A DNA stretch of 64,000 nucleotides, from NCBI GenBank assembly GCA_036488585.1, contig DASXHH010000021.1:1478-65477 (forward strand), given 5' to 3'. Each line of letters begins with the position of its first letter. Within the stretch, counting starts at the first letter, position 1. The DNA comes from Candidatus Saccharimonadia bacterium. GTDB taxonomy: Bacteria > Patescibacteriota > Saccharimonadia > UBA4664. Shown here in pieces: positions 12,602 through 45,011 of the stretch. Under the pieces are notes generated by a model, which made no database searches, was not told the origin of the DNA, and saw only the letters and a program-made list of their open reading frames with translations. A program made the translations under genes and the position numbers.

Positions 12602-12606
12602 TATCG

Positions 12607-29468: not shown

Positions 29469-29807
29469 ATGCAGGAAGATAAGGGTTGGGACCGCATTGT
29501 CGACGCCGTCGACGCCAAGTTTGGCATTAAAGACCACGGCCGTTCGAAACGCCCAGTTCAAGACGCTCATCATCTAACGGAGCAGGTCGCGTTCGTGGTA
29601 TTTGAGCGGGGAGGGGAGCGGTACAAGCTTGAGCGGGTACAAGGCCCAGCCATCATCGACCGCAAAACTGTCGGCGCCCGCCGCGCCGGTGCCGACGTGC
29701 ATTACGAAAACGTCTACGATCCGTCCGAAACCAGTTTTCGCACCAACCTCTTTAAAGATGAGTCAGGAGAGTGGGCACCCATCGATCCGAGCGAACTCGG
29801 CCTCTAA
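29469..29807 (+). CDS. hypothetical protein
   Basis: SD AAGGGGAG upstream, 112 aa. Confidence 0.4.
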   Translation: MQEDKGWDRIVDAVDAKFGIKDHGRSKRPVQDAHHLTEQVAFVVFERGGERYKLERVQGPAIIDRKTVGARRAGADVHYENVYDPSETSFRTNLFKDESGEWAPIDPSELGL

Positions 29808-29852
29808 TTCCGGGTCATAGACATAAAACCGTAGTTTTAGAGCTTTGATCCG

Positions 29853-29895
29853 GAGTGCCGGACGAACCCACGCTATTGGGGTTCGTCCGGCACTC
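29853..29895. terminator. 17-bp perfect hairpin (GAGTGCCGGACGAACCC / GGGTTCGTCCGGCACTC) between convergent genes
   Basis: Seen directly. Probably a bidirectional terminator. Confidence 0.65.
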
Positions 29896-29918
29896 TATGT
29901 AGGCAATGGACGCGGCGG

Positions 29919-30470
29919 TCAGGCATCACCGGGGGCTGGCTGGCTCACCGCCGCGCGGCGCCCTTCTGCCACCAGTTCCTGAAGCGCGCTCACCAGCGAA
30001 CGACCGTCGTCGTTAACACCCTTCAGTAGGCGGTCGAGCGCGGCCGGGTCCTTGATATCGAACGCGGCCTCAACCTCGACGAGCAGAGCGATCCGACTGG
30101 CGGCCACCGCATCGAGACCGGGGACCTTACCGGTCAGGAGATTGTGTGCGTGGCAAGCCAGGGCCAGCGCCGCCGTCGCCACCGCCCGTTCCCGGCCAGA
30201 GCCGAACTTATTGACCAGTTGGTCGATGCCGGCCTGGTTCAGGGAGTAACCCGGGACGTCTTTCTCGTCGTGGCCCTTGCCGAGCTCAACCAATTCGCCG
30301 CGTACCGCGGGGGATAGCCCGCTCACGGACGCCATAAAGGCCTCCAGCAGTTCGCGGTCATTCCCGTTGAACATGCGCTCGAGCCGGGCTACGCCGATCC
30401 TATGACCCGCGATCATGGCGTTCGCCAGAATCGTGGCCAAATCGGGGCCTCCGGACGCTCTTGCTATCAT
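29919..30470 (-). CDS. hypothetical protein
   Basis: 183-aa ORF divergent from the T4SS-like block across a 540-nt AT-richer leader. Confidence 0.4.
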   Translation of the reverse strand: MIARASGGPDLATILANAMIAGHRIGVARLERMFNGNDRELLEAFMASVSGLSPAVRGELVELGKGHDEKDVPGYSLNQAGIDQLVNKFGSGRERAVATAALALACHAHNLLTGKVPGLDAVAASRIALLVEVEAAFDIKDPAALDRLLKGVNDDGRSLVSALQELVAEGRRAAVSQPAPGDA

Positions 30471-30479
30471 CGTTCCTCA

Positions 30480-31011
30480 CTTTCGTGTCAGCTTCCTGAC
30501 AGTCCCCTGGCTACGGATTCGCAGGCCAGGGTTCTATCAGGGAACCCGAGGAACAACCACATAATGAAAGTCATTACCGGATTAGTCAAGTTCGGTAACC
30601 GCTTCCCAAGGGGGTTTGATGTCAAAGCTTTACAACATAAAACACGCCATGATATAAGGAACCTAGCGTTAAGTGCTACAGCATGACAGCGTCAGAGGTG
30701 AAGTACATCTCACAATGTGGACACGGCCGTCATGTACGCCTTTATTTTTAGGCCACCAACGGATGGCGTGTTAGCTTCTCTCAATTCACGTGGACATTTC
30801 CACAAACCAAGGCATAGCATGTAGCTCGGCCTGGCCCTTTGCCAAAGCTCAAAGGTCCTGGCCGGGTTGCTGAAGAGTCGTCTGAATAGACGCTTGGAGG
30901 TTTCTCGGTGCCAGGTCAACCATAAAACTGTTGACTTGCAGCTTGATATCCGACGTTTGTTCAGTTCGAGTTGTCAGTAAACACGCCCCTCTACCAGAGA
31001 GAAGGTGCCCT
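30480..31011 (+). promoter_or_regulatory. long AT-richer divergent leader with inverted repeats upstream of the ParA-like gene
   Basis: TGTCAG-N4-CTGACA at about 30497 and GTCAAC-N9-GTTGAC at about 30916, with a GC drop. Regulatory by inference. Confidence 0.4.
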
Positions 31012-32145
31012 ATGGGGAAGTTCACCAATTTCTTCGGTGGCTCCGACCATCGCTCCGAACAGGCCGCTGCCGAGCAGGTACTCGAGCTCAGCGAAGCCAT
31101 CCCAACCGGCGTTTACGCCTGTGTGCAGGTGAAGGGCGGCGGGTCCAAGACCACCACCGCCGTCAACATGGCCTCGCTCTTGGCCCACCTCACCCACGCC
31201 ACGGTCGTCCTCATCGACGCCAACCCGGCGTCGGGCAATAGCGGCCGTAAGGTCGGGCGAGACTACCACCGCACGGTTACGGTCCAGGGCCTGCTCCAGG
31301 CCATCCAAAAGAACCCAAAGGTGGACGCCAAGGATCTGCTCCGGCTGATGCGGCCTACCCGTTACGGCGTCCGCGTGGTGGCAGCCGACCCGATCATCGA
31401 CCCGCAGACCCGGTTCTACGACACGCAGTGGGACACCATCCTCGACGTACTCACCACCAAGTTCGAGTACATCATCGTGGACATGGGCAACGACATCACC
31501 GACAAGGCCGCACTTACCATCCTCAACCGGTGGACCAGCGTCCTGGTCGTAACAGCCACGGTGGGCAACTACGAGTCCCTACTCCAGATGGCCACCACCG
31601 AGGAGACCATGCGGCGGTTCGGCATCGACGCCACCAAGGTTAACGCCAGCGTCGCCGCCTTCAGCAACGGCGACCCAGGTCAGCTCTCCCAGTACCTGGA
31701 AGCCGCCCAACTCCACGACCGGCTCGGCAACGTTGTCGCCAGGCACATCGGACCCGCGGTAGTCGTGCGCCACGACCGGTACCTAGCCTCACCACAGTTC
31801 GACACGATGGGGGTGGACTTCAGCGCCATCTCGTCGCGCACACTCCTGGATTACTACGAGCTGCTCATAATTCTGCTCGAGCAGGCCTACTTGCTGGCCA
31901 ACGGCCAGCCCTACCACAGCCAGGACGACGACTTCAACGACGAAGCCACCCCCGAAACCGCCCAACTCGACCAGAAAGCGTCAACCCAGGCACCCGCCGC
32001 TTCGGCACCTCGTGTCACCGAGCCGCTGCCTCCGCGCCGTCCGGTTGCACCGGAGCTGTCGCACCCGCCGGACGAACCCAGGGTTCCGTTGTCACCCAAC
32101 GGCGGTGGCCACAATCTTGGAGACCAGGCCGCGCCCTGGAAATAG
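31012..32145 (+). CDS. ParA/MinD-family ATPase with long Pro-rich C-terminal tail
   Basis: Deviant Walker A VQVKGGGSKTTTAVNMA and Walker B IIVDMGND. SD AGAGAGAAGG upstream. Confidence 0.7.
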   Translation: MGKFTNFFGGSDHRSEQAAAEQVLELSEAIPTGVYACVQVKGGGSKTTTAVNMASLLAHLTHATVVLIDANPASGNSGRKVGRDYHRTVTVQGLLQAIQKNPKVDAKDLLRLMRPTRYGVRVVAADPIIDPQTRFYDTQWDTILDVLTTKFEYIIVDMGNDITDKAALTILNRWTSVLVVTATVGNYESLLQMATTEETMRRFGIDATKVNASVAAFSNGDPGQLSQYLEAAQLHDRLGNVVARHIGPAVVVRHDRYLASPQFDTMGVDFSAISSRTLLDYYELLIILLEQAYLLANGQPYHSQDDDFNDEATPETAQLDQKASTQAPAASAPRVTEPLPPRRPVAPELSHPPDEPRVPLSPNGGGHNLGDQAAPWK

Positions 32146-32332
32146 GTTCAACCCGTGAACGCGCGTCCGCCTCGCCCGGCGGATGCGCGTTCACCCACGC
32201 TATCCCGTGCCAGCCCACCACCCTCAGCGGGCTGACACGGGACAGGGTTCGGAAACGCTCCTTTGTTCCGGTTCGAAGTACCTTACAGTTAAATACATAT
32301 CTACCCCCTACACACAGGATGGGAGTATAGCC

Positions 32333-33262
32333 ATGCCGACCTTGCGCGGGCTTCTTGGCTGGGAGACCAGAGTCTCCAAGAACATGCTAGGCGATCACCA
32401 GATCGCCTTCGAACGGTACTTGCGCAACAGCAAGCGCTACCGATGGACTGTCATCGGGCTGCTGGTGACGCTCGTGCTCATGAACATAGGCTCGGCCGCA
32501 GCCTACCTGGCCCAACCGAAGTCGATCGCAAAGCTCCAGGCGGACAACAACCGGCTGAAGCAGCAAGTGGCAGCACTCACCGCCCCCAAGTACCCGGTCG
32601 ACACTGTGCGTTTCGCCGCCTACGCCGCCGCCCTAAACTGCGTCACCTACACCGACCAGGCTCCTCAAAGCCAGGTCAGCGCAGACGAAGCGGCGTGCGG
32701 CTGGTCCGGCTCGGGCGTAGCCAACAACGACCAGCTGGTCTACGACCAGGACCCCGGTCTCACGGCTCCGCTCACTGCCAGCGGCTTGTCGGCCCTGCCG
32801 TTCAACGCGCAGTTCCAGGGTTCGTCCGATTGGCTCAGGTACTGGGTGCCCGTGCAGCAGCACGGCTCCCGGGCCCAGGTTGCCGGCACGCCGGTACCCC
32901 TGAACAGCCAGCCGACGTTCATCCAGAACGGTTGTGCCACCGACACCACTCAAACCGCGTCCGCCACTGCCAGCATACAGGCAGTGGATCAGGTCGTGAG
33001 TGGAGCCCAGCGATTCACCGTGCCGGGACTAACGCTCGCGTTCAACGGCAACGGCCTCACTGGCGCAACCGCCGACAACGAAACCATCTGCCATGAGCAA
33101 ACCGGCCAGTACCTCACACTAGTGGCCAAGGTCACGTACAAAGGACCAACCGCCGGCGCCGGACTGTCCGTGTGGTACGCCTTCCGTACCCAGGTCATAT
33201 CCACAGGCGAAACTCGTGTTAGCGACCTCGGCCTCTACGCCGGCGGCACCCCTGGCAGTTAG
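32333..33262 (+). CDS. membrane-anchored protein with coiled coil and extracytoplasmic domain
   Basis: One TM (WTVIGLLVTLVLMNIGSAAAYLA), a heptad stretch KLQADNNRLKQQVAALT, then a Cys-containing domain. Confidence 0.45.
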   Translation: MPTLRGLLGWETRVSKNMLGDHQIAFERYLRNSKRYRWTVIGLLVTLVLMNIGSAAAYLAQPKSIAKLQADNNRLKQQVAALTAPKYPVDTVRFAAYAAALNCVTYTDQAPQSQVSADEAACGWSGSGVANNDQLVYDQDPGLTAPLTASGLSALPFNAQFQGSSDWLRYWVPVQQHGSRAQVAGTPVPLNSQPTFIQNGCATDTTQTASATASIQAVDQVVSGAQRFTVPGLTLAFNGNGLTGATADNETICHEQTGQYLTLVAKVTYKGPTAGAGLSVWYAFRTQVISTGETRVSDLGLYAGGTPGS

Positions 33263-33271
33263 GAGGACCCA

Positions 33272-33715
33272 ATGTCAGTGTTCACTAAGGGTCTCAGTTT
33301 TCCTCGGAAAATCCTCACTCGGTTCCGGGGCGGCTACACGTACCTCGAAGTGGTCATAGCCATCGGGATCTGGGCTGGGTGCATGCGCTTTATCGGCATA
33401 CATCACGATTTCCTGCTCCCGCTGATCTACCTGGCCATCGCCGTCGGGGTCACCCAACTCACCCGACTAATTCCAACGGACAACACCCGCCTGGGCAAAT
33501 GGCTGGGCATCCAGATCCGCTACTTCGTCCGGCCGCATCCTCTGCGACCGCGACGCCTGGTAGCGGGCCGGCGCCCGCCGCCGCCCAGCCAGGAACGGCA
33601 CGGAGGAGTAATCCGAGTAGAAGGAAGGAGGCCGGACGATGACCGGAGATCAAGGGGCATCAAGCCGAAGTCTGTTCCACAGCTTCGCGGACCTGCTGCG
33701 CGACGGAAGCGCTAA
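33272..33715 (+). CDS. VirB3-like small two-TM protein (by position and topology)
   Basis: SD AGGAGG, two TM helices in the first about 70 aa, directly upstream of and overlapping the VirB4-like gene. Confidence 0.45.
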   Translation: MSVFTKGLSFPRKILTRFRGGYTYLEVVIAIGIWAGCMRFIGIHHDFLLPLIYLAIAVGVTQLTRLIPTDNTRLGKWLGIQIRYFVRPHPLRPRRLVAGRRPPPPSQERHGGVIRVEGRRPDDDRRSRGIKPKSVPQLRGPAARRKR

Positions 33716-36188
33716 TACCAGGCGCCGGCTCAACGTCGCCGGCCCGCCCATCGAAGCCGTCGATGGCTGTATTATTACAGGCCAAGACGGCCACAAGTGG
33801 GCATGGTTCTACATTCCGGCCGCTGCGCTCTGGGATCTCAAACCGGTAGCGGAAAAGGAAGAGGTCTGGCGCGGACTCTGCTCCGTGCTGAATAAACTCG
33901 TAGGCTACGAGATCCACTTCCTCACTATCCCGGGCGATCTGGATGCGGATTACCTCGGCCGCCGTTGGTTGGATCCCAAGTGGTCCGACCTCAACCCGGC
34001 CCCCGAAATGCTGTTCGATGATGACGACGTAGAGGGGATTCGTGCCTACGAGGAACGAATCATCCAAAACGTGGCCGCGCTCAAGCACAAGGGGTACAAG
34101 GTCCGAGCAGTCCATCTGGGAATCCGCCTCCGCGAATCAACCGCTGCTAGAGCGGTATCGCCAGACCAATCGGAACTGGATATCTTCGGGATCAAGGCGC
34201 GGAAAAACTACCGGCTCTTGCCGGAGCTCCGGAACCTGCTCCAGATGATCCGCTGGAACGGCTTTGCCGCCCGCCCAGTGCCCCAAGACCGGCTGCTCGA
34301 CCTCGTCACCCGCATGATCTGGCCCGGCCATCCTAACCGCCCGCAAGTAGTGCTGTCGAACCATCAACCCGGCAGCGCCGCCCAAGGTGAGGGATTGGCC
34401 TACCTCCAGGAAGGCGATGTGCTCGAGCGTTACCGTAGCCTAATCGTCGATCCAGACGAAATCCGGGGCCGGACCTACGCCGCTTACTGGAGCCTGCACA
34501 GCTTGCCCCAGGACCCGGTGTTCCCCGGCAACGAATTCCTCCGACTCGTCGTCTTCGGCCAACCAGTCATGACGTCCGTGCGCGCACGCATCGTTTCCGC
34601 GTCGCGCATGGACTCGAAGGTACGGCGGGTCAAAGACGACCTGGTGGGTCACTCCGAATGGCTGGCAATCAACAATAAGGGCGACGGCCAAAACGAGCTA
34701 GTACCCTACGCTCAGGCCCTCGAGGCCTTCGCCCGGCACACCGAAGCCAGACAGCCAACGGTCGTGTTCTCGGCTACGGCCATCCTAACCAACCCCGACG
34801 AGGACATCCTCCACGACATGGGACTCCAACTCGAGCTCAATGCTGCGGGTCCCGAGAAAGGTGGCTACGACGACCAGTCCGTAGGATGGGTCGCTCCCGG
34901 CGGCAGCCAGCTCGCACTGTACCGTGAAGCCATGCCCGGCTCCACGACCCGTTGCGACCGGTACGCACACTACGCCTCGGTGGAATCGTTCGCAGTCGGC
35001 ATGCCGGTCGCAACGAGCCAACTTCCGTTCCTCGGCACCCTCATCGGCGAGCTCACGGCGCCCGGCTGCGAGGCCGGACCGCTGTTCATGCGCACCGATG
35101 TGTCGCTCCTACCCGATGTCGACAAACGAGCAGCCATCCTGCTAGTCGGGCCGTCCGGCGGCGGTAAAACGCTCGCCGGCTCCCTCCTCGGGGTTTCGCT
35201 GGCCATGCGAGGCGGGGTGGCGATCATTCGCGACCCTAAAGGTGACACCCGTTACCTCGACGTCCCTCGCGGTCTGCGGTTCCAGCAGATCGATCTGGGC
35301 GAATTCGAGGGCGCCATGAACCCAGGGCTGCTCCAGGCCGACCCGGTCGAAAGCGCCAACCTCATGGCGAGGATGCTCCAAACCTTCGCCAGCGCCTACG
35401 ACGCCGACTCCTACGGCGCACTGTTCTCGGCCTGCCAGGCCGAGATACTGCGCGACCCGGAGCGACCCGACTTCAGAATGGTCATCCAGGCCTTGGCCCG
35501 TGGCCAATCCGAAGTCGAGCGTCGGATCGGCTCGCGGCTCAGTCCCTACGCCGACATGCGCTGGGCCAAGACATTCACGGGTTCGCGGACCGATGTCCGC
35601 AAGCTCCTCGATGCTCTCGGCCCGGGACTCACCACCTGGGGAGCCGAAGGTTGGGAACCCCCGCCGCCTTCCATTCCCGAGGGTCAATGGACTGTGGGCC
35701 AGCACGCCACCATGGCATTGCTAGAACTGCAGTTTGGTATCGGCCGGCTCGTCTCGTTCGACCGTAGGCGTGTAACCTACACGTTCGACGACGAGTTCCA
35801 CATGTATCCCAACGCCCTGGCCCGGTCGTTGTACCTGGTAGCGCGGTTTGCCCGGTCCGTAAATGCCATCACGGCAGTCGGCACCCAATCATGGGACGAC
35901 GTGCCGGAGAACATCATGGACCTGGTGGGACTACTCGTCGTCTTCAAGCAGGAGAGCCGCAAGGAGGCCGCACGATCGGCCGCAGCACTCGGGCTAGACC
36001 CAGACGACGAATCTGTTATCCGCATGCTGATGTCGCTTGGCAGCGGTAACACTCCGGGTGAAGCGGTCTTCCGCCACCCCCTGGGCCGGGCCATTCAAGG
36101 CCGGTTCGACCCAACCCTCTGGACCGGCGCCTCCGGCCAGTTCCTCACCAACCAAAACGCCCGCCGCCTGGCGGAAGAGACATCCTGA
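33639..36188 (+). CDS. VirB4/TrbE/CagE-family type IV secretion ATPase
   Basis: 849 aa with no N-terminal TM. Walker A LLVGPSGGGKTL, nearby DPKGD motif, Walker B TYTFDDEFHMY and a TQSWDD motif. Confidence 0.7.
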   Translation: MTGDQGASSRSLFHSFADLLRDGSANTRRRLNVAGPPIEAVDGCIITGQDGHKWAWFYIPAAALWDLKPVAEKEEVWRGLCSVLNKLVGYEIHFLTIPGDLDADYLGRRWLDPKWSDLNPAPEMLFDDDDVEGIRAYEERIIQNVAALKHKGYKVRAVHLGIRLRESTAARAVSPDQSELDIFGIKARKNYRLLPELRNLLQMIRWNGFAARPVPQDRLLDLVTRMIWPGHPNRPQVVLSNHQPGSAAQGEGLAYLQEGDVLERYRSLIVDPDEIRGRTYAAYWSLHSLPQDPVFPGNEFLRLVVFGQPVMTSVRARIVSASRMDSKVRRVKDDLVGHSEWLAINNKGDGQNELVPYAQALEAFARHTEARQPTVVFSATAILTNPDEDILHDMGLQLELNAAGPEKGGYDDQSVGWVAPGGSQLALYREAMPGSTTRCDRYAHYASVESFAVGMPVATSQLPFLGTLIGELTAPGCEAGPLFMRTDVSLLPDVDKRAAILLVGPSGGGKTLAGSLLGVSLAMRGGVAIIRDPKGDTRYLDVPRGLRFQQIDLGEFEGAMNPGLLQADPVESANLMARMLQTFASAYDADSYGALFSACQAEILRDPERPDFRMVIQALARGQSEVERRIGSRLSPYADMRWAKTFTGSRTDVRKLLDALGPGLTTWGAEGWEPPPPSIPEGQWTVGQHATMALLELQFGIGRLVSFDRRRVTYTFDDEFHMYPNALARSLYLVARFARSVNAITAVGTQSWDDVPENIMDLVGLLVVFKQESRKEAARSAAALGLDPDDESVIRMLMSLGSGNTPGEAVFRHPLGRAIQGRFDPTLWTGASGQFLTNQNARRLAEETS

Positions 36189-36201
36189 GAAGGAGATAGA
36201 T

Positions 36202-36447
36202 ATGAACCCCACCGGATACGTGCTGGCAGTCGACCCGCTGCAGCACATAATCGGACAGTCCTCGAACCTTGTGTTCTGGCTCGTCGTTATCGCGGGGGCG
36301 CTGGCGATCGTGTTCGCGATCTTCGCGCACGGCAACCGCAGCAGGGCGTTCGCCATCTTCGGCGCCGCCATGCTCGCCCTGGTGCTCGTCACCGACCCCC
36401 ACAAGGTCGTAAACACTTTCGCGAGCATCCTCTTCGCGATCTTCTAG
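36202..36447 (+). CDS. small two-TM pilin-like / VirB2-TrbC-like membrane protein
   Basis: 81 aa with SD GAGAAGGAGA. It has two hydrophobic helices and is followed by strong hairpins. Confidence 0.45.
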   Translation: MNPTGYVLAVDPLQHIIGQSSNLVFWLVVIAGALAIVFAIFAHGNRSRAFAIFGAAMLALVLVTDPHKVVNTFASILFAIF

Positions 36448-36467
36448 TACTGTCCACCGGTACAACT

Positions 36468-36496
36468 TCCGTGCGGGGCGCCCAGCGCCCCGCACG
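36468..36496 (+). terminator. 13-bp perfect GC hairpin (CCGTGCGGGGCGC cca GCGCCCCGCACGG), followed by a second hairpin at 36499..36542
   Basis: Seen directly, immediately after the pilin-like gene. Confidence 0.6.
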
Positions 36497-36634
36497 GATC
36501 CCGTCCAAAACGCTGGAATTAATTTTCGAACGTTCTGGACGGGCGCCATGCCCGTCGTTGCCGTCATGCGGCCACGTAAGTTTAGGGCCGGGGAGTCATC
36601 TCCGGTTGCTCATTCCCATAGGAAGGATGATGGC

Positions 36635-38719
36635 ATGAAAATGCCACGCCTCTTGCTCAGGGGCGCCATTATGCTGTTCGTCCTCTTTGCAGGATGGAGC
36701 ATCGGCAGCCCGGCATTCGCCGCCACCGCCAATCCACCACCAACACTCCAGGCACTCACCGCACCCACGGGAGTCAAGGCGGTGCTCGAATCCAACGGCA
36801 CCGTAGTAATCACCTGGAAGCCTCCCGCCGGCAATCCACGGCTTGGTGGCTATATTGTGGAGCGTAACCACTCCCAGCTCACCAAGCTAACCGCCGATGG
36901 CCACGGTGGCCCCACCACCTACACCGACCCACGGCCGCTCACCGGTACCGATATCTACGATATCGAGGCCTACTCGCCCGCAGGTACGGCCGGCCCGGCG
37001 TCGGACGGCGCGTCGCTCTCTGTTACCGGCCAGGCACTCGGCGGCACCAACGCTACTCCCAACCAGGGACCCAGCGGCGCCGACACCGTTGGCCCCAACC
37101 TCCAGGGCAACAACTCACCGACCGCCTTCGAGGTCTACGGCAAAAGCGCCGGGCAGGTCAACGAAACCTACGGCTTCGCGGAGAACCCGTTCAACCGCGG
37201 TTTCATGTCCATGCTTAACATCGTGTGGTATTTCATCACGATGCATGCTTACCTGGCGCTATCGTTCCTCGCCTGGGGCCTCACCCGCAAGTTCTACGCC
37301 CCGCTGGTAACAGTGGTGACCCAGTTCATTACGGCCTACTTTAAGATGCCGCTATTTGGGTCGCTTACCATACTGGCGATGATATTGGGCGTCGGGGCGC
37401 TCTCGCTCCGGTTGCTCAAAGGCCATGTCACCTGGGTCGTACGAGGGCTGGGTATCATCGTGCTGGTAGTTGGAGGCATGACCCTATATGCCAACTTCGC
37501 CCCGCGCGTCGTCCAGACCACCATGAACTACCCGGTGGAATTCGGCGACTACGTGCTCGGCGCCGTGAACGGCGCCTTGCCCGCCAATCCCGGCCACGAC
37601 CAGTTCAACCTGCAAGTCCGCCCCACCTTCAACGGCAACCCCTTCGATCAGCAGGTACGCCGCTACCAGGATGCGGAATGGACCACTACGGTGTACCCCA
37701 CCGTCTGCCAGCTGAATTTCGGCGACGAGCAATGGGCCATCACTCACTTCGTTCCCGACGATTCGGGAGCACCCAGCGGATTCCACCACCTCACCTACTG
37801 TGAGTTCTACCTCGCCACGGTCTCGCACAACGGAGCCGAGCGCGACTACCTCGGTAGCCAGGTTCAGCAAAACTCCCCGCCCGAGGTGTGGGATATGTAC
37901 CAGGGCAACAACCTGCCCCGGCACTACTGGATCGCCACGCTCGGCGGCCTCGTCATAACCATCCGGTCGCTCTACATCGATCTCCTGGCCTTCTCGTTTG
38001 TGCTGGGTGAAGTGTTGATCGCGATCTGGCTGGTTAAGATGGCCCTGATCGGACTGGGAGCCGCCATCGAACAGGTCCGACCGCTCACCAACGACATGGT
38101 AAAACGCATGGTGATCACGGGTCACATCCCGATCGGGGGTGCGATCATCGCGGTCATCGGCCTCGCCCTGTCCAACGAGCTGGCCGCCCGGGCGCCGCAA
38201 TACGGCTGGACAGCCTCCATGGCCTACCAGCTCGCGGTCGCCATCGGCATGCTGGTGGCACTAATCATGATGTGGGTGCGCCGCCGCCACGCCCGGGCCG
38301 AACGGATCCGGATCGACGGCTCGCGCGGTGGCGGAGGCGGAGGCGGCGGCACTGGTGCCACCGTATCCGGGGCTGCCACCGTAGCCGCGGGTGCGGCCAC
38401 TGGCGGAGCTGCGGCCGCGGCCACTTGGACCGCCATCACAGTGAAAGCCTCATCCGCTGGTGGCGGCCAGCCGCGAGCCCGGCAATCACTACCGCCGCCG
38501 CGCAGCGGCCCGCGGTCTGTAGCCGGCGGATCCGCTGGCCCACCCCCAGCCCTACCCGGGCCAGACAGTGGGGGACGGCGGCGGCCGCAGTCCGTTCAGG
38601 GCCGAGTAGTTGAGAGCCGGATCGAACCGCCCGGTATGCCCATGCTACCGCCCAAACCGGCCTCCAGCGGCCGCCCGCCGCGCGCGCTTCCTCCGGGAGG
38701 CTCCGGTTCATCATCCTAA
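36635..38719 (+). CDS. secreted/polytopic protein: signal peptide plus fibronectin-III-like domain plus multi-TM (VirB6-like by position) plus poly-Gly/Pro-Arg tail
   Basis: SD GGAAGGA. Signal peptide AMLFVLFAGWSIGSPAFAATA, then Fn3-like TAPTGVKAVLESNGTVVITWKPPAGNPRLGGYIVE, at least 6 TM helices, and a GGGGGGG/PPRSGPR-rich C-terminus. Confidence 0.55.
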   Translation: MKMPRLLLRGAIMLFVLFAGWSIGSPAFAATANPPPTLQALTAPTGVKAVLESNGTVVITWKPPAGNPRLGGYIVERNHSQLTKLTADGHGGPTTYTDPRPLTGTDIYDIEAYSPAGTAGPASDGASLSVTGQALGGTNATPNQGPSGADTVGPNLQGNNSPTAFEVYGKSAGQVNETYGFAENPFNRGFMSMLNIVWYFITMHAYLALSFLAWGLTRKFYAPLVTVVTQFITAYFKMPLFGSLTILAMILGVGALSLRLLKGHVTWVVRGLGIIVLVVGGMTLYANFAPRVVQTTMNYPVEFGDYVLGAVNGALPANPGHDQFNLQVRPTFNGNPFDQQVRRYQDAEWTTTVYPTVCQLNFGDEQWAITHFVPDDSGAPSGFHHLTYCEFYLATVSHNGAERDYLGSQVQQNSPPEVWDMYQGNNLPRHYWIATLGGLVITIRSLYIDLLAFSFVLGEVLIAIWLVKMALIGLGAAIEQVRPLTNDMVKRMVITGHIPIGGAIIAVIGLALSNELAARAPQYGWTASMAYQLAVAIGMLVALIMMWVRRRHARAERIRIDGSRGGGGGGGGTGATVSGAATVAAGAATGGAAAAATWTAITVKASSAGGGQPRARQSLPPPRSGPRSVAGGSAGPPPALPGPDSGGRRRPQSVQGRVVESRIEPPGMPMLPPKPASSGRPPRALPPGGSGSSS

Positions 38720-38897
38720 CCACCCCATGTACCCCGGCGTGCCCACACCAGCGCGCCGGGGTACACCCAACCCCTTCACGATCTGGCGCGACGGCTATAG
38801 CCAGGAGCTGCCACGCTAGGCCTTGAAGGTCTAGTACCCCTACATCCCCAATATTCCAACCAAAACCAATTCCCGCGATACCGATTGGCGGTAGACC

Positions 38898-39542
38898 ATG
38901 TCACCGTTCCGTAACCCCCGTGTCCGCCACCTGATGATCGGCGCGTTTGTAGCCCTGTTGGTCGTCATAACACTGGTCGCGCACGCCACCTCCAGTGGCC
39001 ATAACACCGCCCGCCCGCCGGCCAGCGCGTCAGCCACTCCTGACCGCGTCTCCGGCCCCGGCACCAACTCAGCCACCGCACCAACCACCGTTCCTGGACC
39101 AACCGCGAGCGGCCAGCCGTCCACCATGACCAAGCTGCCCACTTCCGACCGCCAGGCGGTTACAGCCGTTGTGCGCACCTTCATCGAGAAGGCCTACTCG
39201 TTTAGTTACACCGACCGCCCCGGCGACGTAGACCATCGGGTAAAAGCCTACCTCGCGCCGACGTTCGCTGGCACACTGCCGGAACCCCCCAGTCCCACCT
39301 CCAACGCGGGCCTGGACTTCCAGCGCAGCCGAACCGTGTCGCGGGCCTACGTGGCACACGACACCGACATCAAGTTCAACTGGACCGAAGCTGGTTCCGC
39401 CGGGGTCACCGTTACGGTCACCCGGTCTACCTCCAGCAACACCTCCGATTCGTCCCAGATCAACCAGTTTAACTGCCGTCTCACATTCGTCCGGGGCAAC
39501 GGCACCTGGTTGGTCAGCGACCTGCAAGAGGGGACGTATTGA
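38898..39542 (+). CDS. membrane-anchored protein with Thr/Pro linker and small globular domain (possibly NTF2/VirB8-like)
   Basis: N-terminal TM, a low-complexity linker, then a 110-aa domain. The fold call is an inference from T4SS context. Confidence 0.4.
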   Translation: MSPFRNPRVRHLMIGAFVALLVVITLVAHATSSGHNTARPPASASATPDRVSGPGTNSATAPTTVPGPTASGQPSTMTKLPTSDRQAVTAVVRTFIEKAYSFSYTDRPGDVDHRVKAYLAPTFAGTLPEPPSPTSNAGLDFQRSRTVSRAYVAHDTDIKFNWTEAGSAGVTVTVTRSTSSNTSDSSQINQFNCRLTFVRGNGTWLVSDLQEGTY

Positions 39543-39544
39543 CC

Positions 39545-41293
39545 ATGAAGCTCTTGATGTGGCTAGCCGTCGGACTCATAGCACTAGGAACAATAGTGGG
39601 GGGCTTCTTTCTTCTCACCCTGTTCGTGGTGGCCGGAGCCGGTACGCCAGTCGAAAACTCCACAGTCGTCCCAGGTTGTTCCGGGTCCGCTCGCAACCTA
39701 GCCGCGCCCGCCGCGGTCACAGTTAGGAGCACCCAGCTCAACTCTGCCCAGGTCCACAACGCCGAAACCATCATCGGTGTGGCGAAAAGCCGGGGGCTGA
39801 GTGCGCGTGACGCCGCCATCGGTGTGGCCACGGCCATGCAGGAATCGACGCTCATCAACCTCACCACCCCGGACGCCGTCAATGCCGACAGTATCGGCCT
39901 GTTCCAGCAGCGCCCCAGTATGGGTTGGGGCACTCCCCAACAGCTAGCCAACCCGGTTTACGCCGCCAACAGGTTTTACGACGCCCTGGTAACGATCAAA
40001 AACCGAGACAGCCTGCCCCTTACTGTCGCCGCGCAGGAAGTGCAGCATTCTGCCTACCCGAACGCCTACGCGCAATGGGAACCAATGTCCACTGCGCTGG
40101 CCAACCAGGCCTACCAAGGCGGTGGCTCAGCGGGCGTTGGTACGACTAACCCGGCCGGACCCTTCAGCCTGGCGGCGTCCGCCACTGGCTGCAACGCCCC
40201 GTCCGCCGTCACCACCACCGCGGTTGTGAACAAGGCTGTCCGCGCGGCGCTGTCACAACTGGGCGTTCCGTACGTCTGGGGCGGCACCACGCCCAAGGGC
40301 CGGCCCGGCGCTGGGCTCGATTGCTCGGGCCTCACCCAGTACGCCTACTCCCAGGCCGGTGTAGCCATCCCGCGCGTCGCCAACGACCAGTACAACGCTG
40401 CCCACAAAATACCGCTCACACCATCGGCCCTACTGCCCGGCGACCTGCTGTTCGAAAATTGGAACGAGTCCGGACCCGGCACCGGCTGGGGACACGTGGG
40501 GATGTACATTGGCAATGGCCAGGTTATACAGGAACCCCACACTGGGCTCACCGCGGAAGTTGTCAGCTTCTCGCAATTCGGCGCCCAAGCCGCGGCCCGC
40601 CCCGTACTTCCCAAGGTATCAAATCCCGCCTCGTCAACGCCAAGTGCTCGACGCGCTGGTACAAACTGCACGCCGGCACGACCCTGCACGGTCTTTGGCA
40701 TTGGCGACTCGATCCTCAACCTGCTCGATCTAGACAGTATTCTCACCAAACGGTCCTTTGGACCCGGGTGGACCTACGTCCACAATGCCTCGGGCGGTCG
40801 AGGCGTCACCCAATATGGCGGCATAACCGTCGGGGGAACCGGGTACGATGCGCCCATTACTGGCGACGCCGCCGTCTTCCAGGATGCCTCGGTGGTACGT
40901 ACCGCGAGCGCCATCGTGATCGAGTTGGGTACCAACCCCAATGAGTCCGGCCAGAATTGCCCTGGACCGGATAACTTCGCTGCCTCCGTCCAACAAATGG
41001 TCCACGATATCCGCTCGATCGCTGGCCATCCGGTTCGGCTCTATTGGGTCAATATCGGTAACCAGCGAAGCGACTCGTGCGCCTGGACAATCAACCCGCG
41101 CAACCATGTTCTGAGCTCGCTAGCCAGCCCGCTCGGGTTCCAAGTTATCGACTGGCATGGGGTAGCTGCGCATCACCCTGAGTGGTTCAACGCCGACCCA
41201 ATCCACCCCAATACCGCAGGACAGATGCAGTTGGCCCAGCTCATTACATCGGCTGTTGCCGGCGGCAACTTACGGTTCCGTCAGGGCATCTAG
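39545..41293 (+). CDS. three-domain cell-wall hydrolase: N-terminal putative glycosidase-like domain plus NlpC/P60 peptidase plus SGNH/GDSL hydrolase
   Basis: N-terminal TM. NlpC/P60 residues GLDCSGLTQYAY...GHVGMYIGNGQVI. SGNH blocks GIGDSI, GTNP, DPIHPN. The upstream domain has ESTLINL...DSIGLFQQR. Confidence 0.65.
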   Translation: MKLLMWLAVGLIALGTIVGGFFLLTLFVVAGAGTPVENSTVVPGCSGSARNLAAPAAVTVRSTQLNSAQVHNAETIIGVAKSRGLSARDAAIGVATAMQESTLINLTTPDAVNADSIGLFQQRPSMGWGTPQQLANPVYAANRFYDALVTIKNRDSLPLTVAAQEVQHSAYPNAYAQWEPMSTALANQAYQGGGSAGVGTTNPAGPFSLAASATGCNAPSAVTTTAVVNKAVRAALSQLGVPYVWGGTTPKGRPGAGLDCSGLTQYAYSQAGVAIPRVANDQYNAAHKIPLTPSALLPGDLLFENWNESGPGTGWGHVGMYIGNGQVIQEPHTGLTAEVVSFSQFGAQAAARPVLPKVSNPASSTPSARRAGTNCTPARPCTVFGIGDSILNLLDLDSILTKRSFGPGWTYVHNASGGRGVTQYGGITVGGTGYDAPITGDAAVFQDASVVRTASAIVIELGTNPNESGQNCPGPDNFAASVQQMVHDIRSIAGHPVRLYWVNIGNQRSDSCAWTINPRNHVLSSLASPLGFQVIDWHGVAAHHPEWFNADPIHPNTAGQMQLAQLITSAVAGGNLRFRQGI

Positions 41294-41491
41294 ACCCTGC
41301 AGCGGCCCGGCCTCATTCGCCACCAAGGCGAGCGAGGCCGGGCCTTCATCTACCCCAACGTGCCCTTGACCCGTATAAATACTTATGTTACAATATATTC
41401 ACATTGCAGATAAACTCCGCTATTCTCATGGCGTTGAGATAACTCTGTCCTGTAACTTGTCAGTTTGCTCGCTTTCTTCAGGGAGGATCAG

Positions 41492-41890
41492 ATGCGCAGA
41501 TACCCACTGCCATTCGAATTTCCGGACCGCAAATCGATTTCTGTCCGCGAGGTCTACGACACCTTTCGGGCGAAGCAGGCCATCCCCATCAGGATTCTCG
41601 GCTTTAGCTACACGATCGTTGGTCAGCAAGACAATGGCACCAAGATTTTTCAACTGGTACCATCAACGGCAGGCGAACGTGTCGAAGCGGAACTCTTCTC
41701 GCTTGACCCAAGCACCACGCGCCAGAAGCTCCGGCGTGGTGTCGCAGTCGGCATAACACAAGCCGGCTTGCACAACCCAGACCACGACACAAGCGGGTGC
41801 GCCAAGGACTTCTGGTTCCGTCAGCTCCCTGACGATACCTGGCGGGTAGAGTACCTCGCAGCGTGCCCCACCTGTGCAACCGCCGCCTGA
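41492..41890 (+). CDS. hypothetical protein with C-terminal CPTC
   Basis: SD GGGAGGA and an AT-rich promoter region at 41370-41490. Confidence 0.4.
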   Translation: MRRYPLPFEFPDRKSISVREVYDTFRAKQAIPIRILGFSYTIVGQQDNGTKIFQLVPSTAGERVEAELFSLDPSTTRQKLRRGVAVGITQAGLHNPDHDTSGCAKDFWFRQLPDDTWRVEYLAACPTCATAA

Positions 41891-41923
41891 CCACCACCCG
41901 AAGGAACCCTCGCAGCTGCCGCT

Positions 41924-41953
41924 AAGGCCCACCGACACACGTCGGTGGGCCTT
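41924..41953 (+). terminator. 13-bp perfect hairpin AAGGCCCACCGAC acac GTCGGTGGGCCTT
   Basis: Seen directly, downstream of the 41492 gene and upstream of gltX. Confidence 0.65.
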
Positions 41954-42003
41954 CGTCACGTCTGCGCTTGTTCGAGGGCAAATGTCACGTTAAAATAAGG
42001 TCT

Positions 42004-43440
42004 ATGTCAAGCACTAATTCTCCCGCGCGCGTCCGCTTCGCCCCTAGCCCCACCGGTTATCTGCATATCGGGGGCATGCGATCGGCGCTTTTTAATTGGC
42101 TCTGGGCCCGCCATACCGGCGGCACGTTTGTGTTGCGTCTCGAAGACACTGACCGCAACCGGCTCGTCGAAGGTGCGGCTGAGCAAATCTACGCCTCGCA
42201 CCGCGACCTCGGCATTACGCCCGACGAGGGCCCCGAACAGGGCGGTCAGTTTGGCCCCTATGTGCAGTCCGAACGTCTCGATATTTACCGCGAACATGCT
42301 GAAAAACTCCTGGAATCCGGCGCCATGTACCGCTGTTGGTGCTCACCCGAGCGCCTGACTAAATTGCGCGAGGATGCCCAGAAGCGGGGAGTGGCCTTCA
42401 AGTACGACCGTCACTGCCTCGTACCAGCCAACCGCCGCCCCGAATCCGAGCCGCACGTGCTACGCTTTCACATTCCAGACCGGCCCGAAACCGTCGCCTG
42501 GAGCGACGCCGTGCGCGCCCGCCTTGAGTTTCGCACTGAAGACCTTGACGACTTCGTGGCCATGAAAGCTGACGGCTACCCGACTTACCAGTTCGCCAAC
42601 GTCGTCGACGACCACCTCATGCAAATTAGCCACGTACTGCGCGCCGACGAATGGATCCCTTCCACACCCAAGCACATCCTGCTCTATCAAGCGTTTGGCT
42701 GGGAGCCGCCGATTTTCGGTCATCTACCCGCCGTGCAAGGTCCCACCGGCGGCAAAAAGCTCAGTAAGCGCGACGGCGCCCAATCGGTCCATGAATACTT
42801 GGACGAGGGCTATCTACCCGAGGCTCTACGCAGCTTCCTGGCCAGCCTCGGCTGGAACGACGGCACCACCCAAGAGGTGTACACTACCGACCAACTCGTC
42901 GACCGTTTCACCCTGGACCGCATTCAAAAAAGCCCCGCCCGCTTCGACAAAGACCGCCTCACCTGGGTCAATGGGGTAATGCTTCGCCAGATGCCACTCC
43001 AGAGCCTCCTAGAGGCCGCTGAAAGCTTCTGGCCACCCGTTGCCGCCGAGTACCCAACAGAGTACAAGACTGCCGTCCTGGGGCTCGTACACGAGCGTAT
43101 CAAGTTCCTGGCCGAGATCCCCGAGCTCACCGAGTTCTTCTTCGCCGACCCCAAGCCAGACCCGGCCCCGCTCACCAAGCAACTCGACGTCACCGTCGCC
43201 CAATCAGCGCTCGAGCGCGTCATCCAGGCTCTCCCATCCGACTGGACCGAGCCGGCGCTCGAACATGCCATCCGGCCGCTCGCCGAGAAACTCGATCTCA
43301 AAACCGGCCAGCTCTTCGGCCTCCTTCGCATTGCCCTCACCGGCCGCACTGCCGCCCCTGGGTTGTTCGAAACTATGGCAGTTCTCGGTCACGACGTCAC
43401 CCTTCGCCGCCTCAACACCGCCCTACAAACATTGCGCTAA
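42004..43440 (+). CDS. gltX: glutamyl-tRNA synthetase
   Basis: HIGH-type motif PSPTGYLHIGG and KMSKS-type KLSKR. Confidence 0.9.
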   Translation: MSSTNSPARVRFAPSPTGYLHIGGMRSALFNWLWARHTGGTFVLRLEDTDRNRLVEGAAEQIYASHRDLGITPDEGPEQGGQFGPYVQSERLDIYREHAEKLLESGAMYRCWCSPERLTKLREDAQKRGVAFKYDRHCLVPANRRPESEPHVLRFHIPDRPETVAWSDAVRARLEFRTEDLDDFVAMKADGYPTYQFANVVDDHLMQISHVLRADEWIPSTPKHILLYQAFGWEPPIFGHLPAVQGPTGGKKLSKRDGAQSVHEYLDEGYLPEALRSFLASLGWNDGTTQEVYTTDQLVDRFTLDRIQKSPARFDKDRLTWVNGVMLRQMPLQSLLEAAESFWPPVAAEYPTEYKTAVLGLVHERIKFLAEIPELTEFFFADPKPDPAPLTKQLDVTVAQSALERVIQALPSDWTEPALEHAIRPLAEKLDLKTGQLFGLLRIALTGRTAAPGLFETMAVLGHDVTLRRLNTALQTLR

Positions 43441-43561
43441 AACTCCCTCACAACAGATGGCTGCCACGTGAGAGCCGCTCACATTACCCCAACAGGTTTG
43501 ACAAGCCACGCGAGCGTGCCCTATAGTGACCTCACTTAAGCAAAGTGAGGTTAAACCACTC

Positions 43562-43765
43562 ATGAGTGTTTCTTTCTACGACGTAAAGACCCGTCAGTCC
43601 GTGGAGGTTCCGGAAAGCGATGTCTCCAAGACCAAGTACGAGCGCACCACCAAGGACGGCAAGACCCAGGTTCGCTACGCCCTCCGCGGCAAGTACGACG
43701 GCCGCAACCTCACCAAGTTCGTCGGTCAGGCCGACTGGGATGCTTTCAGCGGTCCAGTAGTCTAA
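43562..43765 (+). CDS. small hypothetical protein
   Basis: 67 aa, preceded by an 8-bp hairpin CCTCACTT aagc AAGTGAGG. Confidence 0.35.
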   Translation: MSVSFYDVKTRQSVEVPESDVSKTKYERTTKDGKTQVRYALRGKYDGRNLTKFVGQADWDAFSGPVV

Positions 43766-43832
43766 ATTCCTGTCCGTAAACCATAAGCAAAAACGTAGCC
43801 CTCACGGGCTCGTTTTTGTGTAGAATGAATAT

Positions 43833-45011
43833 ATGGCGCAATCATCCCAGCCCCTAGCCGAGCCACCGGCTCGCCCGGAAGACCTCATTCCCGAACCTCC
43901 CGGTACTACAGATCCCCAACCCCAAAAGCAGGTACAACCGGACAAGCCCTGGTTTAAGCGCCACTGGAAATCAGTGGTAATTGGTTTCGTTGTGGTCGTG
44001 CTCGTGGGGGCCGGGGCCGCCGCAGCCTGGCAATTCACGCACCAGTCCAAGCCAGCGGCGGCCGTTAAGCCCAGCTCCACCCCAACCACACCGACTCCCG
44101 CACCGTCACCGGTCACCAAAGCCTCGCCGCTCACCGGTTTGCAGGTCGCGCCCGATGTCGCGGGTCAGCCGATTGTGGGCGTAATCATCGAAAACCATAC
44201 CGACGCCCGTCCCCAATCGGGCCTAGGCGATGCCGGCGTAGTCTATGAGGCCAACGCCGAGGGCGGCATCACCCGTTTCGAAGCGTTTTATCTCGATAAA
44301 ATCCCGGCCACCCTCGGCCCGGTCCGCTCCGTCCGCACCTATTTCGTGGACTGGGCTCTCGAATTTAACGCGCCCCTTGCCCACGCCGGCGGCAACGCCG
44401 ACGCCCTGGACGAAATCGGTCCCTTGCACATGAAGGACATGAACGCCCTCAGTTTCGCCGCTGACGGCTTCTACCGCACCACCGACCGTTACGCCCCCCA
44501 CAACCTCTACACCAACCAGGACAAGCTCACCGCGCTCACGAAGCGCCTCGGCTTCTGGGTGCCCTCTAGCTTCACCCCCAGCCCCCGCAAAGCCGACACA
44601 CCTACGCAAAACGCACCCCACCCAGCCATTCACATCGATTATTCCTACTCGGGTTACCAGGTTGACTACAAATACGACCCCAGTACCAACGATTACGCCC
44701 GATTCTTGGCCGGCGCACCGCACATCGACCGCAATACTGGCGCTCAAATTCACGTTAAAAACATCGTGGTGGAAATGATGCCGACTAGCTATGGCACCAC
44801 CCGCATCGGTGAGCAAACTGTCATCATGCAGACCGTCGGCAGCGGCCAAGGCTGGGTGTTCCGCGACGGCCAGGCCATCCCCATCACCTGGTCAAAGTCC
44901 TCGCGCACCGACCGTACCCGTCTCATCGGTGCCGACGGCAAGGATGTTCCGCTCGACGCCGGCAACACCTGGTACTCGATCGTTCCACAGGGCAAAAACG
45001 TTAGCTTTTAG
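43833..45011 (+). CDS. DUF3048 (YerB-like) lipoprotein-type protein
   Basis: N-terminal TM plus Pro/Thr linker, then IIENHTDARPQSGL...VVYEANAEGGITRFEAFY, the DUF3048 pattern. Confidence 0.6.
   Translation: MAQSSQPLAEPPARPEDLIPEPPGTTDPQPQKQVQPDKPWFKRHWKSVVIGFVVVVLVGAGAAAAWQFTHQSKPAAAVKPSSTPTTPTPAPSPVTKASPLTGLQVAPDVAGQPIVGVIIENHTDARPQSGLGDAGVVYEANAEGGITRFEAFYLDKIPATLGPVRSVRTYFVDWALEFNAPLAHAGGNADALDEIGPLHMKDMNALSFAADGFYRTTDRYAPHNLYTNQDKLTALTKRLGFWVPSSFTPSPRKADTPTQNAPHPAIHIDYSYSGYQVDYKYDPSTNDYARFLAGAPHIDRNTGAQIHVKNIVVEMMPTSYGTTRIGEQTVIMQTVGSGQGWVFRDGQAIPITWSKSSRTDRTRLIGADGKDVPLDAGNTWYSIVPQGKNVSF

Follow-up and report, generated by a model that had tools for sequence, protein, structure and literature searches.

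We examined a 64,000-nucleotide (nt) stretch of the genome of an ultrasmall Candidatus Saccharimonadia bacterium (contig DASXHH010000021.1, positions 1,478 to 65,477; hereafter the window), in which nine co-oriented open reading frames (ORFs) include a VirB4-like ATPase. The original prediction for this DNA had read them as a Gram-positive-style, VirB4-centred type IV secretion system (T4SS) core with a VirB3-like protein, a VirB6-like protein and a multi-domain hydrolase. All nine ORFs are present, the gene-by-gene reading was largely right, and profile and hhalign matches support the core as described. We found that the block is an insertion in the Saccharimonadia chromosome and that its gene order is conserved in other loci derived from Saccharimonadia. 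Its gene content suggests the channel half of a T4SS accompanied by an EspI-type ATPase. Features are listed in Table 1; the starts at 31012 (ParA-like gene), 32333 (second gene) and ~36635 (VirB6-like gene) were taken from gene calls.

Table 1. Features of the island in window coordinates (aa, amino acids; TM, transmembrane; GC, guanine plus cytosine content; L numbers denote other loci, see text)
Feature	Position	Strand	Basis and remarks
Inserted island	29808..41985		13-61 nt gap in relatives, resumed gltX motif, GC offset
Hairpin, perfect 17 bp	29853..29895	+	just after g112, left island edge; -38.3 kcal/mol, z -8.0
183-aa all-helical protein	29919..30470	-	inside insertion; tenth island gene
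Leader, 541 nt, low GC (0.50)	30471..31011	+	upstream of first module gene; promoter-like site 30791-30820 (promoter scan)
EspI-type MinD/ParA ATPase, 377 aa	31012..32145	+	CbiA/AAA_31, plasmid tblastn, hhalign
Hairpin	32155..32194	+	after ATPase gene; -36.1 kcal/mol, z -8.3; counterpart in L003, L004, L085
TcpC/Orf13-like (VirB8-like) cell-wall subunit, 309 aa	32333..33262	+	hhalign, TM scan
TcpE/VirB3-like membrane protein, 147 aa	33272..33715	+	position, topology, weak hhalign match
VirB4 ATPase, MPF_FA class, 849 aa	33639..36188	+	AAA_10, TcpF; profile scores
Small two-TM protein, 81 aa	36202..36447	+	two TM segments
Hairpin, perfect 14 bp	36468..36498	+	directly after 81-aa gene; -35.4 kcal/mol
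TcpH/Orf15-like extended VirB6, 723 aa	36635..38719 (ORF from 36548)	+	hhalign, TM scan
Hairpin, 14 pairs	38728..38765	+	after VirB6-like gene; counterparts in L003, L004
Anchored 214-aa protein	38898..39542	+	one TM segment; C-terminal domain like TcpC second NTF2-like domain
Peptidoglycan hydrolase, three domains, 584 aa (VirB1/CwlT/Orf14 analogue)	39539..41293	+	Pfam, PHROG
Hairpin	41304..41344	+	after hydrolase gene; -39.0 kcal/mol, z -7.1; conserved in L096
Small Cys-containing protein, 132-141 aa	41492..41890	+	separate transcription unit, right island end
Hairpin	41922..41955	+	right island edge, before gltX promoter motif; -41.5 kcal/mol (extended fold), z -4.6; compensatory changes in L096

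Composition of the VirB4-centred module

The 849-aa ATPase matched AAA_10 in Pfam (1.6e-9) and had TcpF (7e-11) as its one NCBIfam match. These matches bear out the VirB4 type predicted for it, as opposed to an FtsK or VirD4 type, and the motifs GPSGGGKT, DPKGD and TQSWDD quoted in that prediction are all found in its translation. A profile built from the VirB4 family scored 184 bits against a metagenomic, TcpC-linked VirB4 (L086), 173 bits against the VirB4 of a Nocardiopsis plasmid, 134 bits against that of a Streptomyces plasmid (NZ_CP108590), 100 bits against Tn916 Orf16 and 85 bits against pCW3 TcpF. The pGBA1 protein scored 53 bits, under Tn916 Orf16 and TcpF, and pCF10 PrgJ, the prototype of the mating-pair formation (MPF) class MPF_FATA, was not matched at all. 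Each of the best 150 library matches was closest to FA-type references (150/150), and none matched PrgJ. When plasmids were searched by tblastn, VirB4 found only monoderm VirB4s at 22-27% identity, with the best E-values from actinomycetes. A phmmer search against PDB sequences gave no match, and a word-index homologue search returned only the query itself. On profile scores and best matches, the window VirB4 is assigned to the MPF_FA class. In a published survey, 2,425 of 2,474 Patescibacteria VirB4 proteins fell into one clade nested in MPF_FATA and a single one of the 2,474 was FA-type (PMC12102498). By indirect comparison, the window VirB4 is placed outside this clade, which holds nearly all Patescibacteria VirB4.

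Near gltX in other Saccharibacteria, L066 encodes a large ATPase of 858 aa and L070 one of 865 aa, both with an unusual conserved N-terminal domain. They were tried as canonical VirB4 comparators and set aside; by eye they look like VirD4-type coupling proteins, and they matched the VirB4 profile weakly (E 3e-7 and 9e-5).

The remaining channel subunits were compared by hhalign, as families, with reference sets from pCW3, Tn916 and actinomycete plasmids; negative controls scored <1%. The 309-aa protein has an N-terminal TM segment, its only one, followed by a coiled coil and a beta-rich domain of ~220 aa. Its family (4 members) aligned with TcpC at 93.8% (E 1.7e-7), the 223 aligned columns taking in both domains of TcpC, and orthologues occur in the metagenomic loci L003, L004 and L085. 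On this alignment the protein is homologous to TcpC/VirB8. The family of the anchored 214-aa protein aligned at 93.8% (129 columns) with a 265-aa Streptomyces plasmid protein encoded between a VirB6-like gene and a hydrolase gene, and at 80.9% (103 columns) with the C-terminal domain of TcpC, so that the module may have two VirB8-like subunits. Profile searches with the families of the 309-aa and 214-aa proteins (g2 and g7) found no match, and Pfam at E<=1 gave only noise.

By the same method, the family of the 723-aa protein matched the TcpH family at 97.5% (E 7e-12, 277 columns), which identifies it at profile level as a TcpH/VirB6 homologue. It begins with a signal or anchor segment and a weak Fn3-like domain, followed by ~7 TM segments and a Gly/Ala/Pro-rich tail. 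The Fn3 domain originally predicted for this protein is matched only weakly, at an E-value of 0.004 that fails to reach the Pfam cut-off. Its length is within the 700-900-aa range of MPF_FA VirB6 proteins (PMC12857230), and a tblastn search of plasmids with it found no match.

The 147-aa protein has hydrophobic residues at 25-58, read as two TM helices, and its gene overlaps the start of virB4 by 77 nt. The gene is kept in L003, L004 and L085, with overlaps of 1-77 nt across the loci. Its family matched TcpE weakly (69.5%, E 4e-5, 105 columns) and PrgI at 1.1%, and there was no Pfam TcpE match. The 81-aa protein gave a weak TcpD_dom match (E 7e-4) in NCBIfam/Pfam scans; by hhalign its family had no significant match to TcpD (46 columns), and Pfam VirB2/TrbC was not matched. 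Such a small two-TM gene is present once in the module rather than as an array. Genes at the equivalent position encode orthologues of 72-99 aa in L003, L004, L085, L100 and L101, and that of L096 aligns over 81 aa. The protein may be VirB2-, TcpD- or YddF-like.

The hydrolase combines NLPC_P60 (8e-23), a Lipase_GDSL_2 domain of the SGNH/GDSL esterase type (1e-9) and an N-terminal lysozyme-like domain (residues 64-197), which matched phrog_10030, a tape-measure-protein lysin domain, at 5e-43 and SLT_3 at E 0.005. Its best NCBIfam matches were of the RipA/B/C/D type. The small Cys-containing protein had no family match in Pfam, NCBIfam or PHROG scans. It is 52% identical to its counterpart in L096, and phmmer (E<0.01) found no match in L003 or in L004, whose contig stops inside its hydrolase gene and thus short of the equivalent position. 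The VirB8-like, VirB6 and hydrolase features of the module, and tentatively the TcpE-like one, match the published hallmarks of MPF_FA systems, namely a two-domain VirB8-like protein, a VirB6 of 700-900 aa, TcpE beside virB4 and a bifunctional VirB1 (PMC4027160; PMC12857230).

The first gene encodes a MinD/ParA family ATPase with a deviant Walker A motif (KGGGSKT), the motif IDANPASGN, a Pro-rich C-terminal region and weak CbiA/AAA_31 matches. A tblastn search of 72,556 plasmids returned 32 records, 30 of them actinobacterial. One match was a MinD/ParA gene in the ESX locus of a mycobacterial plasmid, where it lies between espG and eccD, as does EspI (PMC2763215). By hhalign the family scored 99.2% (281 columns) against this ESX-locus protein, 99.2% against the pBD2 homologue and 98.8% against the MinD/ParA of a Nocardiopsis T4SS operon, as against 34% for the partition ParA PrgP. 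There is no ParB-like gene beside it. The ATPase predicted as ParA-like is thus not a plasmid-type partition ParA but a MinD/ParA of the kind typical of secretion loci. By these profile comparisons it is homologous to EspI-like proteins. An EspI-like gene is the first module gene in L003, L004 and L085 as well as in the window, with GGxGKT P-loops. The protein of the mycobacterial plasmid ESX locus shares the IDANPASGN motif and Pro-rich extensions with the window ATPase. EspI (Rv3876) is listed as a Pro/Ala-rich component of ESX-1 (PMC2763215). It accompanies a type VII system, whereas the window ATPase accompanies a type IV system and has its Pro-rich region at the C-terminus.

Genes for DNA processing were searched for widely. 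Pfam scans of 40 ORFs found no relaxase, type IV coupling protein (T4CP) or integrase in the block or the 64-kb window. Using phmmer against all ORFs >=80 aa in the window, L003, L004, L085, L090 and L096, we found no match at E<0.01 to TcpA, TcpB, TcpM, Orf21, MobT, PcfC, PcfG, Tn916 Int or Xis, a resolvase or a Patescibacteria VirD4-like protein. The Pfam tables for L100 and L101 likewise held no integrase, relaxase, FtsK/TcpA or VirD4. The originally reported lack of relaxase, T4CP and integrase therefore stands for the whole window.

The inserted island and its relatives

The island measures ~12.2 kb (~29808-41985) and lies between the backbone genes g112 (29469-29807) and gltX (start 42004). 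In nine relatives only 13-61 nt separate the g112 stop from the gltX start, and local tblastn found the module in none of them. The other seven relatives carry unrelated, shorter inserts of 165-1223 nt at this position, indicating that the site is a hotspot. The module is thus absent at this site from all 16 relatives inspected and is not a conserved feature of the lineage. A motif upstream of gltX that is conserved in relatives (TAAAATAAGGxCxATGTCAAGC) picks up again in the window at ~41986. GC content had been judged similar to that of the host backbone. Per kb, however, it is 0.61-0.68 in the island (mean ~0.63) against ~0.56-0.60 in the flanks (~0.58), an offset of ~5 points. The block is an insertion in the chromosome of a Candidatus Saccharimonadia bacterium. 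No flanking direct repeats and no repeat structure suggestive of oriT were found at the island, and the nearest tRNA is 7 kb away.

The backbone is that of Saccharimonadia. A scan of GTDB genomes with GltX led to Saccharimonadia metagenome-assembled genomes (MAGs) at 62-70% identity, MreB is 90-95% identical to Saccharimonadia MAGs, and these loci keep the backbone order MreB, O-antigen-ligase-like, WecG, DUF4367, g112, gltX, g392, g207. The window VirB4 itself is 100% identical to a protein of a Candidatus Saccharimonadia MAG, and identical DNA is also present in one JGI and one Logan assembly.

The VirB4 family is rare. When 1.84 billion representative proteins were searched exhaustively with HMMER, only 237 matched at E<=1e-3 and nine at E<=1e-30, the best being 44%, 40% and 31% identical. 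The ten closest matches looked up belonged to 90%-identity clusters of 1-3 members each. A pattern scan based on a four-sequence VirB4 alignment found no relative in 185,579 GTDB species genomes, and a scan of viral contigs found none either.

At least six other metagenomic loci (L003, L004, L085, L096, L100 and L101) preserve the gene order of the module. The close loci encode, in order, a MinD/ParA-like protein, a protein of ~305 aa, one of ~122-147 aa overlapping virB4, VirB4, and proteins of ~80-93, ~640-690 and ~200-220 aa followed by the hydrolase. More distant members, with VirB4 22-26% identical, keep this order across the stretch bounded by the TcpC-like and hydrolase genes, and the domains of their hydrolases vary (e.g. 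GH3, lysozyme, amidase, CHAP). In L003 and L004 the best named homologues of flanking genes are from Saccharimonadia or Saccharimonadales. Gene order is therefore conserved in other loci derived from Saccharimonadia. The genomic context differs among the window, L003 and L004. In every locus, including L003, L004 and L085, the GC content of the module exceeds that of the flanks by 3-6 points while following that of the host.

The hydrolase of L100 (7827-11123) is 1098 aa long and has GH3, phage-lysozyme, amidase_3 and CHAP domains, so the hydrolase slot appears to be modular. Around the module, the Saccharimonadia contig L003/L090 (ENA ERZ26871208 contig_248215) carries transposases (IS30 and IS110) and toxin-antitoxin genes (RelB/YafQ and MazE), and it also encodes a GH5 cellulase, a ricin-type lectin and an F420H2-dependent quinone reductase there.

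One relative shares the insertion site. L096, a JGI contig, is colinear with window positions 33076-44753 at 83.5% nucleotide identity, right gltX junction included, which places the island in the common ancestor of two species-level lineages. We estimated ratios of nonsynonymous to synonymous substitution (dN/dS) between the window and L096 by the Nei-Gojobori method. They were 0.106 for VirB4, 0.103 for the VirB6-like protein and 0.144 for the hydrolase, compared with 0.080 for gltX and 0.107 for g392 in the backbone. The smaller proteins gave higher values: 0.24 for the VirB3-like protein, 0.28 for the 141-aa protein, 0.35 for the 214-aa protein and 0.51, the highest in the module, for the 81-aa protein. 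Synonymous divergence (dS) of the island was similar to that of the flanking genes. Purifying selection on the large module proteins is thus as strong as on neighbouring housekeeping genes.

Hairpins and other features of the window

Every intergenic gap within the module contains a strong GC-rich hairpin (11-17 bp). The original prediction had the block bracketed by two strong hairpins; both are confirmed, the right one with somewhat different limits, and four more lie inside. A hairpin scan of the window returned 13 such structures, five of them in or at the edges of the island, and missed the one at 41304-41344, 3' of which lies a promoter-like site (41366-41394, promoter scan). Equivalent gaps in other loci have hairpins where covered. 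Their sequences are unconserved, and between the window and L096 compensatory changes occur. The position of the hairpin at 36468 is shared with L096, L003, L004 and L085 despite different sequences, and L096 shows a compensatory change in it. It is probably an attenuator or an mRNA-stabilising element. More generally, we infer that the hairpins tune subunit ratios by terminating or attenuating transcription, in particular so that transcript ending with the small two-TM gene is in excess.

Low-GC leaders of 0.54-0.80 kb lie in L003, L004 and L085 at the place equivalent to that of the window leader. The leaders of the four loci have no DNA or peptide similarity, and Rfam gave no credible match. 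The 183-aa protein had no Pfam, NCBIfam or PHROG match, tblastn found only copies of the same contig, and the gene is not conserved in other module loci.

The other inserts at the g112-gltX hotspot (L007, L008, L009, L014, L019, L021 and L028) contain, by eye, NUDIX-like, purD-like and helix-turn-helix-type genes. Elsewhere in the window, a run of heme genes at 10944-15216 encodes HemC, HemD, a ChdC/HemQ of the chlorite dismutase family, HemE and ferrochelatase, i.e. the coproporphyrin-dependent route. Actinobacteria and Firmicutes typically use this route, and its presence in a Patescibacteria genome is a surprise. A release-factor-like protein of baeRF family 3 (15219-16316, minus strand) adjoins the cluster. 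The window also encodes a sortase (22630-23727) and a 168-aa LPQTG-type sortase substrate (60691-61197) with five DCDHK-motif repeats, possibly metal-binding. As for DNA processing, Pfam scans of the unassigned window ORFs returned only a RecD-like helicase (AAA_30, AAA_19, UvrD_C_2; 5260-6462, minus strand), which is 24 kb off and unlinked to the island.

Likeness to known systems and possible function

In VirB4 class and gene order the module resembles the MPF_FA systems of Tn916, ICEBs1 and pCW3 (Orf13-17; ConB-ConG and CwlT; TcpC-TcpH), with which it shares a TcpC-like VirB8, a putative TcpE-like protein encoded just upstream of virB4 and overlapping it, a large VirB6-like protein and a hydrolase with lysozyme and NlpC/P60 domains. 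Unlike them, it has no TcpA/VirD4 coupling protein, no MOBT/MOBM relaxase and no integrase, and it sits in a Patescibacteria chromosome. Its extras are the EspI-type ATPase, a second NTF2-like protein, the SGNH domain of the hydrolase and the weak Fn3-like domain on VirB6. T4SS clusters of actinomycete plasmids (Nocardiopsis changdeensis NZ_CP074136; Streptomyces NZ_CP108590; pGBA1, NZ_CP106651) are colinear with the window, sharing the order TcpC, TcpE, VirB4, VirB6-like, small protein, hydrolase. In Nocardiopsis the operon likewise includes a MinD/ParA gene, and the VirB4 of this cluster and that of Streptomyces NZ_CP108590 are among the closest annotated relatives of the window VirB4. The plasmid VirB4s are only 22-27% identical to that of the window, pairwise phmmer of the module against the Nocardiopsis cluster detected only VirB4 and the ATPase, and it took profile comparison to detect the remaining subunits. 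The actinomycete clusters are on plasmids, of which pGBA1 carries a MOBP relaxase, whereas the window module is chromosomal and belongs to a different phylum.

The original prediction suggested that the function would be undescribed for this lineage. This is wrong in general, since two reports already describe a relaxase-less chromosomal T4SS in ~80% of Patescibacteria genomes, its essentiality for epibiotic growth of a Saccharimonadia species, and possible pili (PMC12102498; PMC12857230). This canonical system (Southlakia epibionticum ML1, TM7x) is like the window module in being monoderm-type, chromosomal, usually relaxase-less, presumably repurposed and present in the Saccharimonadia (Wang 2023 as cited in PMC12102498 and PMC12857230). 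It is nested in MPF_FATA and inherited within classes, with TrsD and PrgI homologues and arrays of VirB2-like pilins, whereas the window module is a rare MPF_FA insertion with one small two-TM gene and an EspI-like ATPase. New here are the MPF_FA class, the island nature, the rarity and the conserved eight-gene layout led by an EspI-type ATPase, together with apparent actinobacterial affinities of VirB4, the ATPase and the hydrolase.

Taken together, we favour with a probability of about 0.6 the reading that the block is a horizontally acquired island encoding the channel half of an MPF_FA T4SS and an EspI-type ATPase, and that it is likely a relaxase-independent machine for contact or translocation. 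No coupling protein, relaxase or integrase was found in any locus, which makes such a machine the most likely outcome. In its mechanism, the VirB4 hexamer would dock on the TcpE/VirB3-like and VirB6-like membrane proteins to form a translocon, the TcpC-like and second NTF2-like proteins would cross the wall, and the lysozyme/NlpC-P60/SGNH enzyme would open the peptidoglycan. The small two-TM protein would be overproduced, aided by the hairpin behind its gene. The EspI-like ATPase might exert nucleotide-dependent regulation or position the assembly; EspI itself has a regulatory role that responds to ATP levels. The machine would act on a host cell that is probably actinobacterial, Saccharibacteria having been grown in culture as epibionts of Actinobacteria. 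Sequence affinities also suggest that phylum as the likely ultimate source of the module. The module may rely on a coupling protein from another part of the genome or on substrates exported by Sec. The former is plausible because VirD4-like genes are common in Patescibacteria genomes (PMC12102498). The domesticated, non-conjugative apparatus of the original prediction is thus the best reading, as judged from gene content.

Several points weigh against this reading. The function of the module is deduced from gene content only. The data cover one contig of the genome, so a T4CP, a relaxase or a canonical T4SS could lie elsewhere. Exclusion from the Patescibacteria VirB4 clade follows from the absence of similarity to PrgJ, the FA-like neighbours and rarity. 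The TcpE assignment of the 147-aa protein and the identity of the 81-aa protein are weak, and AlphaFold2 run on single sequences gave unusable models for the C-terminal domain of the 214-aa protein (pLDDT 35.6) and that of the 309-aa protein (pLDDT 34.1). Actinobacteria are suggested as the ultimate source by best matches rather than phylogeny. The occurrence of the module at different sites in different genomes could mean that it is still mobile.

This last point leads to a rival that we regard as unlikely, in which the block is the channel part of an integrative or conjugative element that still moves, its relaxase, coupling protein and recombinase being too divergent to recognise or encoded elsewhere and mobilising it in trans. 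MPF_FA systems are ancestrally conjugative (PMC4027160), and the island is an insertion with a GC offset at a hotspot for inserts. The module occupies different genomic sites in the window, L003 and L004, in L003/L090 it is 10-15 kb or less from toxin-antitoxin genes and transposases (IS30 and IS110), and the 183-aa and 141-aa proteins and the 0.5-kb leader lack an assigned function. However, the two unassigned genes and the leader sequence are not conserved in other loci. Searches of the island, the 64-kb window and related loci (L003, L004, L085, L090, L096, L100 and L101) turned up neither an integrase nor a relaxase, FtsK/TcpA or VirD4, and flanking direct repeats are missing too. The same site in a sister genome of 83% identity, with dS like that of the flanking genes, points to vertical inheritance rather than recent movement. 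That the block is instead a decaying remnant of an integrative and conjugative element (ICE) with no current function, as the original prediction also considered, we find hardly credible. The lack of DNA-processing genes and the rarity of the family fit such a remnant. Against it, the eight core genes are intact and syntenic across loci whose VirB4s are only 22-44% identical, the large proteins have dN/dS values of 0.10-0.14, equal to housekeeping neighbours (gltX, 0.08), and the hairpins show compensatory changes. Intact genes and low dN/dS indicate that the block is functional and effectively refute the remnant.

Ced of archaea and ComB of Helicobacter, both derived from T4SSs, import DNA without the help of a relaxase or a coupling protein. 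By analogy, the module might be a nucleic-acid uptake machine from which an auxotrophic epibiont obtains nucleotides or DNA. A gene set of VirB4, small two-TM proteins and a polytopic VirB6-like protein that lacks both T4CP and relaxase would suit this, as would the lack of nucleotide synthesis in Patescibacteria, one representative of which has been reported to feed on host RNA and to extend T4SS-like tubes to its host (bioRxiv 10.64898/2026.06.21.733656). We nevertheless consider it decidedly improbable. The VirB4 is of the FA class, with no sign of Ced/ComB affinity, which was not itself searched for; no DNA-binding or nuclease component was found; and a module that is rare and recently inserted is not the general nutrient route of the lineage.

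A fuller form of the relaxase-independent contact or translocation reading may be offered tentatively, as a possibility rather than an expectation. A small clade of Saccharimonadia would have captured an actinobacterial-type channel and an EspI-like ATPase from the phylum that it may parasitise. The module would then be a second, specialised host-interface machine under strong selection. Its modular hydrolase (lysozyme, RipA-like endopeptidase and esterase) and Fn3-bearing VirB6 would be tuned to breaching the host's type of wall or docking onto it, and substrates would pass with no relaxase or dedicated coupling protein.

As this locus shows, some Saccharimonadia hold an additional class of T4SS beside the near-universal Patescibacteria T4SS, which is already thought central to host dependence. 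Were the module only a mobilisable remnant, it would be an ordinary island. Should it act on the host, a parasite would here have turned the envelope-crossing machinery of its host phylum to its own use, and the eight genes would form a compact system in which to ask how a T4SS of the Gram-positive type can work when it has no coupling protein.

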